Source of the DNA: Peribolospora baueri
Taxonomy: Eukaryota
DNA: 64,000 nucleotides
NCBI GenBank assembly: GCA_029717555.1
Contig: JAMDHS010000035.1
Coordinates: 124,001-188,000 of the forward strand
Reading direction: 5' to 3'
The notes beneath the pieces were generated by a model, which was given only the letters and a program-made list of their open reading frames with translations, ran no database searches and was not told the origin of the DNA. Positions 49,600 through 55,862 of this stretch are shown here, one piece after another. A program made the position numbers and the translations under genes. Numbering within the stretch: position 1 is the stretch's first letter; each line of letters opens with the position of its first letter.

Positions 49600-52007
49600 A
49601 TGTCGGCGGCAATGCAAAGCTCGCTCCTCCCTCGGGCCGTGCTCGGCCTGTCGTCCGTGGTCGTGGCGTACCTAGTAAACACGCTGGTTCCAGAACCATA
49701 CCTCGTGCGTCGCACCTTGCTCTCTCCAGCACGCCAACGCGATGAAGACCCCGGCGCTGGCGAGGGAACCACTGCTAACCGTCTCTCGCCTCCCCGCCGC
49801 GCTCTTCTCCCACTCCTGACGGGACTGTTCCGTCGTCCAGGACGAGATCTTCCATATTCCTCAAGCTCAGCGATATTGTACCGGGGACTTTACGACCTGG
49901 GACCCAAAGATTACGACCCCTCCAGGACTGTACGTGTCCACTCATCCTTCTGCTCCCGCATCGGTCTTCACCCCGTCCTGGGACATCTCACGGCATGGCC
50001 CACTCCCCAGTGCCTCACCTCTCCTCACTCCTCCTCCACTTGTCGTCTCTCCGTGCAGCTATCTCTTGTCCACTTTTTTCCAGCGACTCGTCCACCTGAT
50101 ATGGAACGTTCCCTGCGACCCCGCCTTCCTCCGCTCGACCAACCTCATCCTCCTCCTCGTCCTTCCGGACGTGTTCGCCAGCATCCTGTCCGCTATTTCT
50201 GTGCCCCTCATCTTCTCTTTGGACGATAGTAGCACATCCCACCTTGTCCCACCGAAGGTGCGGGGCACACTCGTCCGCCGTGTGGGCGCTGACGGACAAG
50301 GCGGCACAGAAGCAGAGAAGGAGTCGGCTCGGAAGGCCCGCTCGTTGGAAGGTGTCATCATCACCAGTCTACCCGTGTTATGGTTCTTTGGTTATCTCTA
50401 CTACACCGACGTCGCCTCGCTCGCTGCAGTATTGGTTTGCCAGGCCTTGGCGCTCAGAGAAAACTATAAACTAGCTGCGTTGGTGGGTTCCCGCTTTCTC
50501 TCACGTTTCTGTGACCACACCTCAATCCGGGACGGCATGCGGATGTCCTCCGGTCTGACGGTATTTCATTCTGATTTTATTTATTGTGTTTTGCTTGCCA
50601 GTTCGCTCTGCTGTCCCTGACGTGTCGGCAGACGAACGTGATATGGGTGGCCTTCGTCGCAGCGACCGCGGCGTTAAAAGTCCTGCATCGTGAATCAAGC
50701 ACGGCTGCTCGAGTGACCTTTTTTGACATTCCGGCGGAAGACGCCTCGTGGGGTGGGTGCTTCTGAAGGCGCATGTTAAGTCGCACCTCTAGCTCACATA
50801 TAACCCCCCATCTTCGTCACGGCAGCCGACATCCCGCGAGTCTTCGTCAGATTTTTGACGACTTTGATTCACCATTGGCGGCCTGTCTTGCCCGTCGTTC
50901 TTCCCTTTGTCCCCGTTTTCGTGGCATTCGGTGCATTTGTGGTCTGGAACGGTGGGGTAGTCCTTGGTGAGTTGTCTCATGAGCGGACGCAAGGTACATC
51001 CAGCCTTATCCAACTTCTCGTCGCCCCCACTCTCCTTTTCCGGCTCAGGCGACAAGGCGAACCACGTCCCCGTGCTCCACGTGCCTCAATTGTTCTACTT
51101 CATCGCCTTCACCACATTTTTCGCCTGGCCTCATCTGCTAGAAGACCGGCGGGCGCTGTGGAGGGCCACTGTTGGGTGTGTGCGGAGCTGGCGGTGAGTT
51201 GAGCGAATCGATGTGCGCTCTCTCTCGGTCCCTTCATTCTCCGCTCACGTCCTGACGGCCTCTTCGTCAACCTTCAGTAATGCGCTGATCCATGCTGTCC
51301 TCTGCGCGGCCATCGTCTTCGCAATACACCGTTATACGTGAGCGGTCGTGACTCCTTCTCATCCTCAAGGTCGTCGTCACTCACGCCGATCCAACCGATT
51401 CTTAACCAAAGCTACGAACATCCATTTCTCCTCGCGGACAATCGCCACTACGCCTTCTACGTCTGGCGCAAGCTCATCAAGCGGCATTGGGCTGTTAAAT
51501 ATCTCCTCGCACCGGTCTATTTGGTTTGTGGGCGATCGTGGTGGATCAAGCTCGGTGAGGCTCTGGACGAGGGTGTCAAGGAGAACATGATCCGAGAAAG
51601 GCACTGAACTGAGTGCCCCTGCATCGCTCACGTTCGCAGGCCGCTCGCAATCGCTCCTTTGGATGCTCGGCTTTCTCGTCGCCCTCTTCCTCACCCTCGC
51701 CCCTTCGCCCCTGCTCGAGCCGCGGTACTTTCTCATTCCCTACATCCTCCTCCGACTGCACATCGCGTCCCCATCGCGGAACGCGGCGGCTGTCCAAGGT
51801 CCTCCGCCGGGCCAGGGCGCAAACGGAAGGCGATCGGCGGATGGCGAAAGCGGAGCGAGGCCGGCGCCTAGCGGCACGTCTCCTCTGCGGGTGCTCGCCG
51901 CGGAAGGGTGCTTCAACGTGCTCATCAACGTGGCGACCATGTATCTCTTCCTCTTCCGACCTTTTAAATGGCCCAGCGAAGACGGCTGGCAGCGTTTCAT
52001 GTACTAG
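49600..52007 (+). CDS. ALG10: Dol-P-Glc alpha-1,2-glucosyltransferase Alg10/Die2
   Basis: [97 protein letters not shown]. Confidence 0.93.
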
Positions 52008-52038
52008 GCAGTAGAAGGAACGAATGGATTGAATGAAC

Positions 52039-52120
52039 ACCGCCCGCAGACGTCATGATTCACGCTGGCTGCGGCAAAGACCGCCCGCAGACGTCATCAT
52101 TCATGCTGGCTGTGGCAAAG
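52039..52120. repeat. 41-bp tandem duplication (2 copies, 3 mismatches)
   Basis: accgcccgcagacgtcatgattcacgctggctgcggcaaag and accgcccgcagacgtcatcattcatgctggctgtggcaaag. Confidence 0.9.
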
Positions 52121-52335
52121 AACCTCCGCCCCGCTGCGCTGGTCCGACCTTGGCAGCGTTAACGAGGTCGGCGTTGGAGGAGAAACGCCGAGGGCGAGTG
52201 GAGGAACAAAAAGGGACGGGACGGCCCATCGTCCCATCGTCACAGCACATCATCTCGTTGACCCTCCTCCCTCATACCTTCCCCTCTCGCTTGCTCCGAT
52301 ACCCAGAGATCAATACCGTCGTCAGCATATCCGAC

Positions 52336-53614
52336 ATGGTGCGTCCGTGCGCTGCAAGGCCAGCTCAGTCGAGCGCACGGCCGTGGGCGCTGACGCCAGT
52401 CCCTTCTACTATCTCTCCCTACCAAGTCCCACGCAGAGCACCACCACAACCACCAGGTCGAAAAGACGGGTGACATGCCCGGCTCTCAGATGTCCGAGCC
52501 CAAGCCGGCCGATGAGGAGTGCAAGGCCGTGTTCAACGACGAGGAGGTCAAGCATGGCGTCCTGCACAAGGTGAGCTGAGCAGGTCTGGCTGGGCACGAG
52601 CCAGCTGCGTTCGGGAATCGTTGGCGCACGTCATGGGTGGGAGGGTCGTTACGTCGATGGAGGGAGTCGACGAAGACGTGAGGTCCCGGATCGCTTATTT
52701 GTTGGCTCATTCTCTTCTGTACGGACCACAGCTTTGGGTGCTGCACAAGGACGACGAGGTGCGTGTTTTCTGTTGACGCTTTGTGTGTGATCAGTTCGGT
52801 GCCCCGCGAGGTCGTGCGGTGACTGGAACGAATCTGTGTCAACTACGCTCCTCTTATCAGAGGCACCACCTGCACGAAGTCAACAGTGAGTCCGACCTTC
52901 CGGACGAGTGTACTCTTTGTTCTTCGCTTGCTTCACACACGGCAGCTCAAACCTCGCACACGACGATTTGATTGCCTCGACCTCTCTCCGTCCCTCCCTC
53001 CCTGTCCCGTACAGAGCTGAAGCACCTCGAACACTACGCGCCCCTTATCTATGCGACGGAGGCTGAGCCGTTCGGGACGAATTACTTCGCCAAGATCCTG
53101 CTCGACGACGAGGGTCACTGGTGAGATGGACCTCCGATGCGCTCACCTTACATTCAGGGCCAGTCCTACCCCGTCTTCCTTCCACGGCGTGGCTGTCTGA
53201 CGCTCTCCGGGCCGTTCACGTTGTTTATTCTCTTTTGTCTCTCCAGCATCCACGTGCGGGCGTTCAAGTCCTCGGAGGGCGAGCTCAAGTTCCACGCCAT
53301 GTGAGTTTATTCTGCCTGTCATGCTGCTCGCTATCGTCTACCTTACTCGAGCATTGATCATCCCTTTCTCATGGACATGGTTGATTTCTCGTCTCCTCCC
53401 TTCTCTGTCATCATCATCGCAGCCACTGGCGCCCCGACGAGGAAGGCGGCGCCGTCTTCACCAAGGAGGACCCGGTAAGCGCACCATTACCGCTCATCTA
53501 GCATCCGGCGGACGTTGAGTGACGCAATCACCCTCCCGTCGTGCTCCGCCTTCTCTCGACCCGCGAACCGACGTCTCATCCCTTTCCTTGCAGCTCAAGT
53601 ACTTTGACTACTAA
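52336..53614 (+). CDS. Stefin/type-1 cystatin-like protein, His-rich, 143 aa; exons 52336-52338, 52427-52570, 52732-52758, 52861-52885, 53015-53120, 53247-53300, 53423-53474, 53594-53614
   Basis: Seven GT-AG introns splice in frame to MSHAEHHHNHQVEKTGDMPGSQMSEPKPADEECKAVFNDEEVKHGVLHKLWVLHKDDERHHLHEVNKLKHLEHYAPLIYATEAEPFGTNYFAKILLDDEGHCIHVRAFKSSEGELKFHAIHWRPDEEGGAVFTKEDPLKYFDY*. GTNYF.K, H.R.F and D.L.YF match stefins. Confidence 0.75.
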
Positions 53615-53968
53615 GCGATCAGCGGGTGACCCCCGTCTGAGGATCGGATGGAGATGAAATCAATGCAAGAAAGTCTACACGCCCCCCTGAGCCTGCTGCT
53701 ATTGTGCTCGCGAGGTGTCTCAAAGGTCGATAGAAATGCCCACTCGCTCTGGAGGGGGACAATGTTGCTCGAAGGAAGGTGGGACGCGGGCGCGTCGGAG
53801 AAAAATCGTGGATGGCACGCGTTCTCTACTGACCAATGAGTGGAGGGGACGAAACCTGCATAGCTTGCTACATGTCGAGGAACGAGTGACCTTGTCCCTC
53901 GCGCGAGGCTATAAGGTTTCAAGGTCCATGCTCGCAAAAGAGAGACGTGCTACACCTCGACCTTGAGA

Positions 53969-55862
53969 CTACAGATAGGTGACCCTCGTTCCCATCCGGA
54001 TCGTCTCGCCAACTTTGACCAAAGCCGCCCACCACAGTCGATAGATCCACCCAAGCAGCGGGCCTATCCGAGCGCCCTGTCGTTGCTTCCCCTCGCCGGC
54101 GCGCTTGTCCTTGCCCTGGGTCGCAAGGCCTCCCTGTTTCAGGCGGATGGAGTTGAGTACGTAGAGCAGCAGAACAGCCGTTCCCACCCATCGGACCAAG
54201 TCTGCAGCGTTCAGATTTCGGGATGCCAGAGCCCACCAAGCTCTGACGCGTGACGCTGGGTCATTCACTGAACGCTGGTGCAGATGCCTCGGCGGAAGGA
54301 GGACGTCCCCTACGCCGTCGTCCGGCCCTTCGAGCGGGCGCGTCGCGAGATACCGAGACACTGAGCCGCGCAGGGCAGAAAAGGCACCTTGCTTGCCAAT
54401 GATATCGTGGGTGCCACGGATATGCGATCCTCGTCGTTCATTCGACCCGCCGGACGGGGTCAGGAGAGAGGACTCGGACCTCTCTTCGCTCAATCTTCTG
54501 CGAGACCCTCCAGCGAAGGCTTGCTGATCACCATCATAGGCGCCGAGGTTAGAGCGCAGCGTCTCAGGAGACGCAGAGCTAGAACTCCTACCTCCCCCTC
54601 CCGTCGAACCTGCACGCCTTTCCGCTTTCGAAGACGAGTGGCGCCGGCCCACCCGCTCGCTGCCCGTGTCCCCGTTGGCCGTAGATACGCTCCCATTGTC
54701 GGAAGGAGGGCTCTTCCGCTGGACAAGACTGTCCAGACCACCCCGACGAGGCGTTTTGTCCTCTTGTCGCTGCGACTGCTGCTTGCGAAGTGCCTCTAAC
54801 CTTGCTCTCTCTGCGCTCGCTAGCTGGGCTTGGCGCACCGCACGAGAGGCTTGCGAGGCGCGGATCGTGGACAGCGATTCTAGCAAACACTGCAACAGCA
54901 AAGAGGATTCATGCGTATGTGAAAGCGGAAATAAGTAATCATTCTTCTGACGGAGGACGACCCCACCTAAAAATCTAACTCACCCTTTTCCTTTCCTCCG
55001 TAAGATCCGCCAAGCCGACGAACGTCTCGGCGTACTCCCAGTCGCCGAGTCTACTCAGAACCTGGATGACATAGAGTTCGGCCACCTTGTCATACATTCC
55101 GTCACTGGTCTGCCCCCTCCGTGCGAAAACCTCCACACTCGCGTCCTCGCTGCCGGCCGCCCCGAGCCACCATTCGCACAGCCCTCGTGCCGACTGGGCG
55201 ACGTCCAGCTTCAAGGCGGCGAAGACAATGGATGTGAGAACGGGGAGCGGAAGGTGAATGGCGAGAGGGAGAAGGTCCGAGTCGGGGCTCAAGGTGGTGG
55301 CGGATGAGACGTCGGTTCGGAAGGGGTCGGCCAATTGAGGTAGAGAAGGAGGCGGACGGCAGCGAGCAAAGCGCAAGACGGACGAGTAGGCAAGATAGGC
55401 CACCAGAGAAGAGGGGTGAGAGTTGCACAGGTGAGATAGCAAATGCCTTGCCGTATCTTCTTCTTCTTTCGTCACTCCTTGAGTGGTAGACTTGCTGCTG
55501 CCGCCGTCCTTGCATACCGAACGCATGGCGGAGCCGTCCGTCCCGGCGGTGGCCCAGAAAGTGACGCGGAGCACGTCCACCTTTTCCTTCATCTTCTCCA
55601 CCTTTTCAACGTCAATGTGATTGACGTCATGTTGTGATCCTTCTGAGCGACGCAGCTCTTCCTCTGCCCTACGAAGATACACGAGCGTCCAGACGTGGTC
55701 TCGATCGAGGAAAGCTCGGGCGGCTTGCGCGTACGATCTCCGCAACGCAGCCCATGATGACGGCAAAGAAGGCGATGATATGCCGTTCTCTGTCTGCTTG
55801 CCCTTGAGCATGAAGGCGGAAGGACAGGCGTCAGAAGAGGGAGGGGACGTTGGAGCGGGCAT
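53969..55862 (-). CDS. PEX26: Peroxin Pex26-like tail-anchored protein
   Basis: YAQAARAFLDRD, ARGLCEWWL, YDKVAELYVIQVLSRLGDWEYAETFV, a C-terminal TM segment, and the fungal Pex26-type end KVGETIRMGTRVTYL*. Confidence 0.75.

Follow-up and report, generated by a model that had tools for sequence, protein, structure and literature searches.

The plus strand of the 64-kb window (the whole stretch of DNA that was analysed) carries a real, divergent fungal gene which, judged by homology, is derived from the stefins (type-1 cystatins) and whose product is predicted to adopt the cystatin fold, in which a five-turn helix lies against an antiparallel sheet of five strands. We hold with moderate confidence that this intron-rich gene encodes a small cytosolic stefin descendant, probably repurposed as a binding module. 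A stefin-derived fungal gene with two contact segments rewritten is a natural test case for the fate of an inhibitor scaffold after the loss of its target.

Gene structure and coding signature

The sequence-only reading had described a hidden gene of eight small exons encoding 143 amino acids. Both that length and the count of 17 His were reproduced exactly, whereas the first exon, an ATG alone, is uncertain. The features of the locus are as follows.

52039..52121, + strand: 41-bp unit in 2.0 copies with 92% match (Tandem Repeats Finder)
52336..52338, + strand: candidate exon 1, uncertain, an ATG alone; downstream donor GTGCGT, the same as the donor of intron 3
52427..52474, + strand: optional His-rich N-terminal extension of 16 codons with five His, in the frame of the main ORF; coding only with the ATG microexon
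52475..52570, + strand: exon 2, 32 codons, stefin-like N-terminus (Met-Pro-Gly...) and beginning of the helix; aligned to profile positions 4-27 with E 0.002; hhalign E 7.4e-4; rank 4 of 2179 segments
52732..52758, + strand: exon 3, microexon encoding the first half of a 17-residue insertion; 27 nt, nine codons, one His; CAG acceptor, GTGCGT donor; GC3 8/9; gap in the stefin alignment
52861..52885, + strand: exon 4, microexon encoding the second half of the insertion; 25 nt, eight codons plus one base, four His; CAG acceptor, GTGAGT donor; GC3 7/8; gap in the stefin alignment
53015..53120, + strand: exon 5, the core, with strand 2, the EAEPFG loop, the conserved GTNYF.K block, then strand 3; 12.4 bits by itself (E 7.7e-6); best of 2179 segments; hhalign 93.5%, E 2.2e-7
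53247..53300, + strand: exon 6, conserved H.R.F strand and second loop SSEG; GC3 18/18; profile positions 69-77
53423..53474, + strand: exon 7, acidic/glycine insertion of eight residues relative to stefins and start of the last strand; GC3 17/18
53594..53614, + strand: exon 8, stefin-typical C-terminus LKYF, two more residues and a TAA stop; profile positions 94-102

The six internal introns are all of the GT..CAG form, 102-161 nt long with pyrimidine-rich 3' ends, and their donors are of the GTGAGT, GTGCGT or GTAAGC type. All 12 splice sites are canonical, the ORF is unbroken over the seven exons (52475-53614, + strand), and a frame check of each intron showed that retention of any one of them introduces at least one in-frame stop. 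The predicted donors of the model are six of the ten strong donor motifs found in 52300-53700, and the extra base of exon 4 gives the phase that the CAG acceptor of exon 5 requires. An alternative AG at 53015-53016 would make in-frame skipping of both microexons possible, giving a 108-aa form; a shortened form of 117 aa would likewise stay in frame. Six competing ORFs on both strands were dropped; none of the six matched a Pfam family at E <= 0.001. Since the junctions were picked by a reader looking for a stefin, the exon boundaries are possibly somewhat over-fitted.

The conservative choice of start codon is the ATG at 52475, which yields a product of 126 aa with 12 His. Joining the ATG-only exon to an AAG acceptor between 52426 and 52427 gives the form of 143 aa and 17 His, and a second acceptor between 52438 and 52439 gives 139 aa. 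These are the only two in-frame acceptors for the ATG exon, and a pyrimidine tract lies before 52426. The strongest-looking CAG acceptor, between 52436 and 52437, was rejected as out of frame, with a stop after 64 codons. The N-terminal 17 residues, and with them five of the 17 His, require that a putative ATG exon of 3 nt is joined to a weak AAG acceptor; within the extension (52427..52474) 13 of 16 third positions and 4 of 16 second positions are GC, a contrast that is suggestive only. The interval from 52339 to 52426 or 52438 may be an intron in the coding region or in the 5'UTR, or the transcript may begin downstream of it. The isoforms span 108-143 aa and have two Cys only, with no disulfide pattern. 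Their N-terminus is hydrophilic, and the earlier statement that a signal peptide is absent agrees with our own reading of the sequence. The 41-bp tandem repeat lies about 215-435 bp 5' of the candidate start codons and is a possible promoter element of the gene.

The codon positions differ sharply in composition. In the spliced frame GC is 0.89 at third positions (GC3) and 0.29 at second positions (GC2), and the introns have 0.56 GC. The third-position counts for exons 2-8 are 29/32, 8/9, 7/8, 29/35, 18/18, 17/18 and 5/7. The GC3-GC2 difference of 0.60 was equalled by none of the 1266 stop-free stretches of at least 30 codons in the window, for which the 99th percentile is 0.31. In the neighbouring genes, the exons supported by homology have GC3 values of 0.64-0.88.

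Homology to stefins

A reference profile was built from 14 stefin ORFs of metagenomes, fetched by their QVVAG motif. All 14 members matched PF00031, and a search of the PDB with the profile returned 23 sequences; human stefin B (2oct, 1stf) was at the top with 1e-33, and the value for stefin A was about 1e-31. Against this profile the spliced protein scored 26.4 bits (E 3.3e-10), compared with 5.6 bits for the best shuffle, and hhalign placed residues 1-124 of the model on template positions 4-100 with a probability of 97.8% (E 8.3e-13). When the QVVAGTNYF columns were deleted together with the 10 residues of the protein that match them, the score was still 21.1 bits (E 1.7e-8; best shuffle 7.7). 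These three results bear out the stefin relationship that had been proposed from the letters of the sequence. The 108-aa form without the microexons scored higher (31.5 bits) than the form containing them against the same profile.

The signal is spread along the gene. Four groups of exons match colinear profile positions independently, exons 5 and 2 also by separate hhalign runs. In a blind six-frame scan, the exon-5 ORF ranked first and the exon-2 ORF fourth among 2179 segments, and the two lie colinear on the same strand about 450 nt apart. Conserved blocks continue over the exon 5/6 and 7/8 junctions, the latter lying within a ...DPLKYF stretch that is shared with L194, a stefin from the metagenomes. 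In pairwise comparison the spliced protein is only about 30% identical to the stefins fetched. Taken singly, exons 2 and 5 matched no Pfam family at E <= 10 (the gathering score of PF00031 is 22.2 bits) and exon 5 matched no PDB chain at E <= 10, because single exons are too short to score. A profile of 130 bacterial cystatin-like domains bearing QVVAGTNY (loci L001-L121) gave 3.3 bits and is too remote a reference.

Stefins A and B (MEROPS I25A, PF00031; PDB 1STF, 2OCT, 1DVC) are likewise single small domains, with stefins being about 100 residues long and having neither a signal peptide nor disulfide bonds, and the order of their elements matches the spliced protein over its full length (hhalign 97.8%). 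The N-terminal Pro-Gly, the helix, the GTNYF.K base of the hairpin, the H.R.F strand and the C-terminal YF are retained. The fungal protein differs from stefins A and B in having EAEPFG for QVVAG and SSEG for LP, and in adding a His-rich insertion of 17 residues after the helix and one of eight residues before the last strand. The gene structures also differ: the fetched metazoan-like stefin loci have an intron right after ...NYF.KV, whereas the fungal gene, with its 6-7 introns, is not interrupted there.

Protease-contact segments, insertions and proposed role

The segments by which stefins contact their proteases are GG, QxVxG and LP (PMC5727476, excerpt). Two of these three, QxVxG and LP, are replaced in the fungal protein, and the N-terminal Gly segment is kept. 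Its Pro-Gly at residues 2-3 aligns to the invariant GG columns with one Gly only, and if the 17-residue extension is translated this trunk is no longer N-terminal. In the first hairpin loop the hhalign alignment sets EAEPFG on QV-VAG, the same replacement that the sequence-only reading had claimed. The Q, both V and the A are changed, and the resulting loop has gained a residue and is now acidic, with a Pro in it. The loss of LP is a further change that the earlier reading did not mention: the second hairpin loop is SSEG where stefins have (P)LP(H) or DLSG, and the Leu invariant in 14/14 reference stefins is a Ser.

The peptides of the two microexons, like the C-terminal LKYF, are those described before, and the alignment gap confirms that the microexons form an insertion relative to stefins exactly after the helix. 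This insertion of 17 residues, five of them His, falls in the stretch that links the helix with strand 2. The legumain-binding site of some cystatins is also located directly after the helix, opposite the papain-binding face (PMC5727476, excerpt). Insertions at the same linker are present in metagenome stefins too, e.g. L198, where 14-16 residues are inserted. L198 and three other metagenome stefins with a short second loop (L150, L162 and L172) also lack Pro in that loop, which reads DLSG, NLQQ, NLSG or DLQG in this group. In addition, L150 extends beyond the YF (...GYFDHDN, compared with ...KYFDY in the fungal protein). These four differ from the fungal protein in keeping QVVAG, which was the criterion for fetching them, and the Leu of loop 2, and in having no His-rich inserts. 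A similar case is EnStef of Eudiplozoon nipponicum, which has an extra back-side element directly after the helix, as the microexons do here; it differs in that GG, QVVAG and LP are all kept and the site is a three-residue SNS rather than a 17-residue insertion (PMC5727476, excerpt).

His accounts for 9.5% of the residues in the 126-aa form and 11.9% in the 143-aa form, only modestly over ordinary reference stefins, which reach up to 8.4%. Metal binding, read from composition alone, is speculative.

In our reading the gene has kept the stefin scaffold and lost two of the three parts with which stefins fill the active-site cleft of papain-type proteases. The linker that holds the microexon insert would lie on the face away from the protease-binding wedge; natural stefins tolerate insertions there, and some cystatins have a second (legumain) site there. 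Classical tight-binding inhibition of cathepsins is most likely gone, in a kingdom reported to be without ancestral papain-type cathepsins. The more likely role would be that of a stefin-fold binding module for a new partner or ligand, and the His-rich helix and insert would confer pH- or metal-dependent behaviour. A cystatin-type domain without inhibitory motifs is known from histidine-rich glycoprotein and the fetuins, which are secreted, disulfide-bonded, multi-domain vertebrate proteins of types 3 and 4. Histidine-rich glycoprotein combines this domain with a His-rich region responsive to metals and pH. The likeness is one of proposed mode, and homology beyond the superfamily is not implied.

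It is possible, with clearly the smaller likelihood, that the protein still inhibits papain-type cysteine proteases but with a changed specificity, gripping them mainly by its N-terminal trunk together with a remodelled wedge. Its targets could be horizontally acquired fungal C1 peptidases or proteases of a host or prey. Both the scaffold of stefins and the N-terminal Pro-Gly are kept, and in an old mutagenesis report cystatin A reportedly did not depend strictly on its QVVAG region for inhibition. The retained Gly and that report together make residual activity thinkable, and the protein may have some protease-inhibitor activity. Short second loops such as DLSG and NLQQ also occur in some metagenome stefins with a canonical QVVAG, and nematode stefins without the Pro of LP are still classed as stefins (PMC5727476, excerpt). 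C1A peptidases acquired horizontally are described from some fungi, as is a vWFA-C1 peptidase (PMC10380794, excerpt). However, both hairpin loops are replaced, with the loop-1 residues Q, V, V and A and the loop-2 Leu all changed, although the invariance of loop 1 in the reference alignment is partly a product of how that alignment was selected. The acidic, Pro-containing and longer loop 1 also argues against inhibition, as do the lack of a signal peptide (by reading) for reaching extracellular proteases and the absence of a C1 peptidase gene among the 16 long ORFs scanned in the window.

That the locus is a functionless relic, decaying or silent, of an ancestral or horizontally acquired stefin gene is improbable. 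Such a relic would fit the loss of the contact motifs, the lack of relatives from exon-level searches, and the reported loss of the family and its targets from fungi (PMC2784779 and PMC10380794, excerpts). Against it, the ORF is intact over seven exons, all splice sites are canonical and the fold-building residues are kept. Moreover, neutral decay would erode GC3, which is at or above that of the neighbouring conserved genes, and this disfavours a relic.

We regard it as very unlikely that the post-helix insertion is a back-side reactive loop by which an asparaginyl endopeptidase or another clan CD enzyme, and not a papain-type one, is inhibited. The insertion does occupy the site of the legumain motif of type-2 cystatins and EnStef and contains one Asn, but the described motif is S/T-N-D/S (PMC5727476, excerpt), whereas the insertion has Val-Asn-Lys, and its Asn is inside a probably helical His-rich stretch. 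It is equally hard to credit that there is no gene and that over-fitted GT/AG pairs imitate a stefin: the junctions were selected by eye and neither exon 2 nor exon 5 is in an annotated protein of the searched collections, but the blind scan ranked both ORFs near the top, homology persists without the eye-catching motif, conserved blocks bridge two junctions, and the GC contrast between codon positions is independent of the alignment, which could not have created it.

Fungal context and search for relatives

Fungi are reported to be without stefins and cystatins (PMC2784779, excerpt) and without any ancestral C1A peptidases (PMC10380794, excerpt), and a stefin relative in a fungus is unexpected because both the family and its usual target enzymes are reported lost. 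No account of a fungal stefin was found in the incomplete set of literature searched, and an earlier database annotation is possible. The mycocypins (clitocypin, macrocypin), the known basidiomycete proteins that inhibit papain-like proteases as well as legumain, have a beta-trefoil fold (PMC7863939, excerpt) and, unlike the stefin-derived protein, are no relatives of cystatins. In the Fusarium FOLD effectors, the likeness of the N-domain to cystatins is structural only (PMC10942635, excerpt).

Exon-level searches gave no fungal relatives. A word-based homologue search with the exon-5 ORF (50 aa) produced two candidates, neither of which scored, and one with exon 2 extended upstream by 13 codons (45 aa) produced none; no annotated protein containing exon 2 or exon 5 was found in the searched collections. 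A HMMER scan of exon 5 (34 aa) against 1.84 billion representatives gave two matches at E <= 0.001. Both matches were set aside, P0002 as a tandem-repeat protein and P0001 (3265 aa, 22 matched stretches) as presumably repetitive as well. A metagenome scan with exon-5 peptides gave 593 pattern matches, none of which was confirmed. Within the 64-kb window no second copy was detected by tblastn with the spliced protein (other matches had E > 1).

These searches were calibrated with an exon of the neighbouring ALG10 gene, which matched 316 proteins at E <= 1e-5. Its best alignments (at least 80% query cover) had 33-35% identity, to plants, Tilletiaria anomala and Tulasnella. With no close relative annotated in the collection, ALG10 reaching about 35% at best, exon-sized queries are unlikely to recover orthologues of a small, fast-evolving protein, and little can be read into searches that came back blank. 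Should orthologues exist, the view that fungi lack the stefin family would have to be revised.

A wider proposal, which we consider doubtful, is that the gene belongs to a hidden Basidiomycota lineage of stefin-derived proteins that survived the loss of cathepsins as histidine-switch (metal- or pH-sensing) cytosolic binders, their microexons alternatively spliced. Such a lineage would have been overlooked because of its tiny exons and its lost QxVxG signature; small microexon-rich genes can escape genome-wide family surveys. If the proposal is true, the cystatin superfamily was not wholly lost from fungi.

In a feature search, exon 2 reached a best score of 0.77 with no family. For exon 5, two cystatin clusters were on top (0.84 and 0.83, with a lead threshold of 0.9), followed in third place (0.81) by an unnamed cluster of 130 members, mostly from Basidiomycota, with an 89-aa representative. 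This ranking, with its cystatin and Basidiomycota clusters, points weakly to a hidden lineage.

Gene model and coding signal

The sequence-only reading had proposed a hidden stefin-like gene of eight exons encoding 143 amino acids with 17 His. In the region examined (51800-54200), the following seven coding segments, joined in a script, gave a predicted open reading frame of 381 nt, with 126 codons, 12 His and a TAA end.

52475-52570, + strand, coding segment (exon 2)
52732-52758, + strand, coding segment (exon 3, microexon)
52861-52885, + strand, coding segment (exon 4, microexon)
53015-53120, + strand, coding segment (exon 5)
53247-53300, + strand, coding segment (exon 6)
53423-53474, + strand, coding segment (exon 7)
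53594-53614, + strand, coding segment (exon 8, with TAA)

The donors of all six predicted introns started with GT (GTGAGC, GTGCGT, GTGAGT, GTGAGA, GTGAGT and GTAAGC), and all six acceptors were CAG with pyrimidine-rich 3' ends; the introns were 102-161 nt long. Ten strong donor-like motifs were found between 52300 and 53700, six of which are the donors of the model, and one more is the donor 3' of a candidate microexon consisting only of ATG (52336-52338). The frame table showed that retention of any one of the six introns introduces at least one in-frame stop.

The eight exons, 143 residues and 17 His were reproduced exactly if this ATG joins an AAG acceptor at 52426|52427. The acceptor at 52438|52439 would give 139 residues, and a CAG acceptor at 52436|52437 was out of frame. 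The stefin alignment starts at the Met of 52475. Counted on the sequence, the 16 codons upstream of 52475 carry G or C at 13/16 third positions vs 4/16 second positions, which hints that they may be coding as well.

The frames permit in-frame skipping of microexon 3, leaving 117 residues. A tandem AGAG acceptor (53013-53016) precedes exon 5, and use of its second AG would skip both microexons in frame. The predicted isoform without both would be of stefin length (108 residues); its sequence scored 31.5 bits against the stefin profile. The AGAG could possibly serve as a splice switch for the His-rich insert.

The GC contents at the first, second and third codon positions of the predicted CDS were 0.64, 0.29 and 0.89, respectively, and that of the introns was 0.56. 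Third-position GC was high in every exon, including both microexons (8/9 and 7/8); homology-supported exons of neighbouring genes had values of 0.64-0.88. The GC3-GC2 difference of the CDS, 0.60, was not attained by any of the window's 1266 stretches of 30 or more codons without a stop; their 99th percentile was 0.31. The signal from codon positions is strong, and no alignment enters into it. Of six competing ORFs, spread over both strands, none matched a Pfam family at E <= 0.001.

Homology to stefins

A survey of about 100 genomes describes stefins and cystatins as absent from Fungi (Kordis and Turk 2009, PMC2784779). Other papers state that no ancestral C1A peptidase survives in fungi, where the only ones left are those acquired horizontally and a vWFA-C1 form (Kordis and Turk 2023, PMC10380794), that the mycocypins, the known basidiomycete cysteine-protease inhibitors, are beta-trefoils (PMC7863939), and that Fusarium FOLD effectors have a cystatin-like N-domain whose likeness is structural only (PMC10942635). 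No description of a fungal stefin was found in the literature searched.

Since one exon by itself is too short a query for Pfam and PDB searches, the full-length protein was compared in scripts. Metagenome contigs were scanned with the back-translated motif QVVAGTNY[FY], which yielded 88 loci and, from these, 33 distinct complete stefin-like ORFs; the 14 of at most 115 residues with a typical ...YF-type C-terminus were kept and 19 were set aside. All 14 matched PF00031, and the profile of their alignment matched 23 PDB sequences, with human stefin B (2oct, 1stf) on top at 1e-33 and stefin A at about 1e-31. It is a genuine stefin profile.

The 126-residue spliced protein scored 26.4 bits against this profile (E 3.3e-10 for one comparison), and the best shuffled sequence reached 5.6 bits (1795 of 2000 shuffles reported). 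In hhalign, residues 1-124 aligned with template positions 4-100 at 97.8% probability (E 8.3e-13). Because the motif used to select the references overlaps the GTNYF of the sequence-only reading, the comparison was rerun without 9 motif columns in the profile and 10 matching residues in the protein; it still gave 21.1 bits (E 1.7e-8; shuffle maximum 7.7). Hence, the stefin homology first seen by eye was borne out.

Exon groups alone matched colinear profile positions: exon 2 at 4-27, exon 5 at 54-66, exon 6 at 69-77 and exons 7-8 at 94-102. Separate hhalign runs gave 93.5% (E 2.2e-7) for exon 5 and E 7.4e-4 for exon 2. A blind six-frame scan of the 64 kb yielded 2179 segments, among which the exon-5 ORF ranked first (E 0.018), with the exon-2 ORF in fourth place. 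Conserved blocks span two junctions, those of exons 5/6 and 7/8. Compared pairwise with single stefins, the protein was about 30% identical.

A profile was also built from bacterial cystatin-like domains (130, found at 121 genome loci), but at 3.3 bits it was too remote to help. Five loci on Firmicutes-type bacterial contigs (L019, L037, L048, L058 and L072) each had two QVVAGTNY matches on the same strand, 282-321 nt apart, and each pair would mark a single protein with cystatin-like domains in tandem.

Rewritten loops and the His-rich insertion

Papain-type enzymes are contacted by three motifs: GG at the N-terminus, QxVxG in the first hairpin loop (loop 1) and LP in the second (loop 2) (PMC5727476), termed the 'tripartite edge' (PMC5072729). 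The window protein keeps the N-terminal Pro-Gly, the loop-flanking GTNYF.K and H.R.F, and the C-terminal YF. In loop 1, the alignment pairs EAEPFG with QV-VAG, as had been proposed; the replacement is an acidic loop with a Pro and one extra residue. In loop 2, SSEG stands where stefins have PLPH or DLSG, and the loop-2 Leu invariant in all 14 references is gone. The predicted gene is an ORF joined at canonical splice sites, with strong coding statistics and homology to stefins, and it lacks two of the three contact motifs. Neither QxVxG nor LP was found, and the protein is therefore not classed as a stefin inhibitor (I25A); judged by its sequence, it is best placed in the cystatin superfamily as a protein derived from stefins.

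The 17 residues of the two microexons, previously read as an insertion after the helix, coincide exactly with a gap in the alignments to stefins, at the linker that joins the helix to strand 2. A further 8 residues, ahead of the last strand, come from exon 7. Eight of the 12 His lie within residues 27-56 with i/i+3 and i/i+4 spacing. His content was 9.5% in the 126-residue form and 11.9% in the 143-residue form, compared with 0.9%-8.4% in the 14 references; there is thus a real, if modest, enrichment.

We infer that the protein adopts a cystatin fold in the cytosol. Given the rewritten loops, and since fungi lack the usual targets, it would no longer inhibit cathepsins in the classical manner, and its His-rich helix and insert may give metal- or pH-dependent binding. 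A still-active inhibitor of altered specificity, with Pro-Gly and the loop flanks kept around changed loops, is a less probable alternative. A silent relic is unlikely beside an intact frame and such codon bias. Type-2 cystatins and the Eudiplozoon nipponicum stefin EnStef carry a back-side legumain-binding motif at the same linker (PMC5727476); natural stefins tolerate insertions there (e.g., L198), and a back-side-loop inhibitor of legumain-type enzymes is very improbable. Equally improbable is an over-fitted artefact, given the motif-removed score and the blind scan.

Four metagenome stefin-like ORFs (L128, L151, L168 and L198) had a Ser/Gly/Asn-rich insertion of 14-20 residues at this linker. 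The first three also had a hydrophobic, signal-peptide-like N-terminus, as would be expected if they are secreted. On another metagenome contig (L194, 65% GC), a stefin fragment ended in ...ADPLKYF, near-identical to ...EDPLKYF of the window protein; its N-terminal half was in another frame, suggesting an intron or frameshift.

Genomic neighbourhood

The fungal window contains an Msb1/Mug8 domain; immediately upstream of the stefin-like gene lies ALG10.

49820-52007, + strand, ALG10/DIE2 glucosyltransferase gene (PF04922 in ORFs 49820-50620 and 51591-52007)

The best alignments of an ALG10 exon covering at least 80% of the query were only 33-35% identical (plants, Tilletiaria anomala and Tulasnella), and the searched collection thus contains no close annotated relative. 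Exon-level homologue searches with the stefin-like gene were blank, which for the same reason says little on the existence of an orthologue. In a feature search, exon 5 ranked two cystatin clusters on top (0.84 and 0.83), followed by an unnamed, mostly Basidiomycota cluster with an 89-residue representative (0.81); all are under the tool threshold of 0.9 and serve as a lead only. Exon 2 returned no family in this search.

Upstream of the stefin-like gene, a 41-bp unit is present in 2.0 copies with 92% match (52039-52121), and both copies include the core ACGTCA as well as TTCAYGCTGG. This second stretch fits the copper-responsive element consensus, which is loose enough for a chance match; if true, such an element would be of interest beside a His-rich protein.
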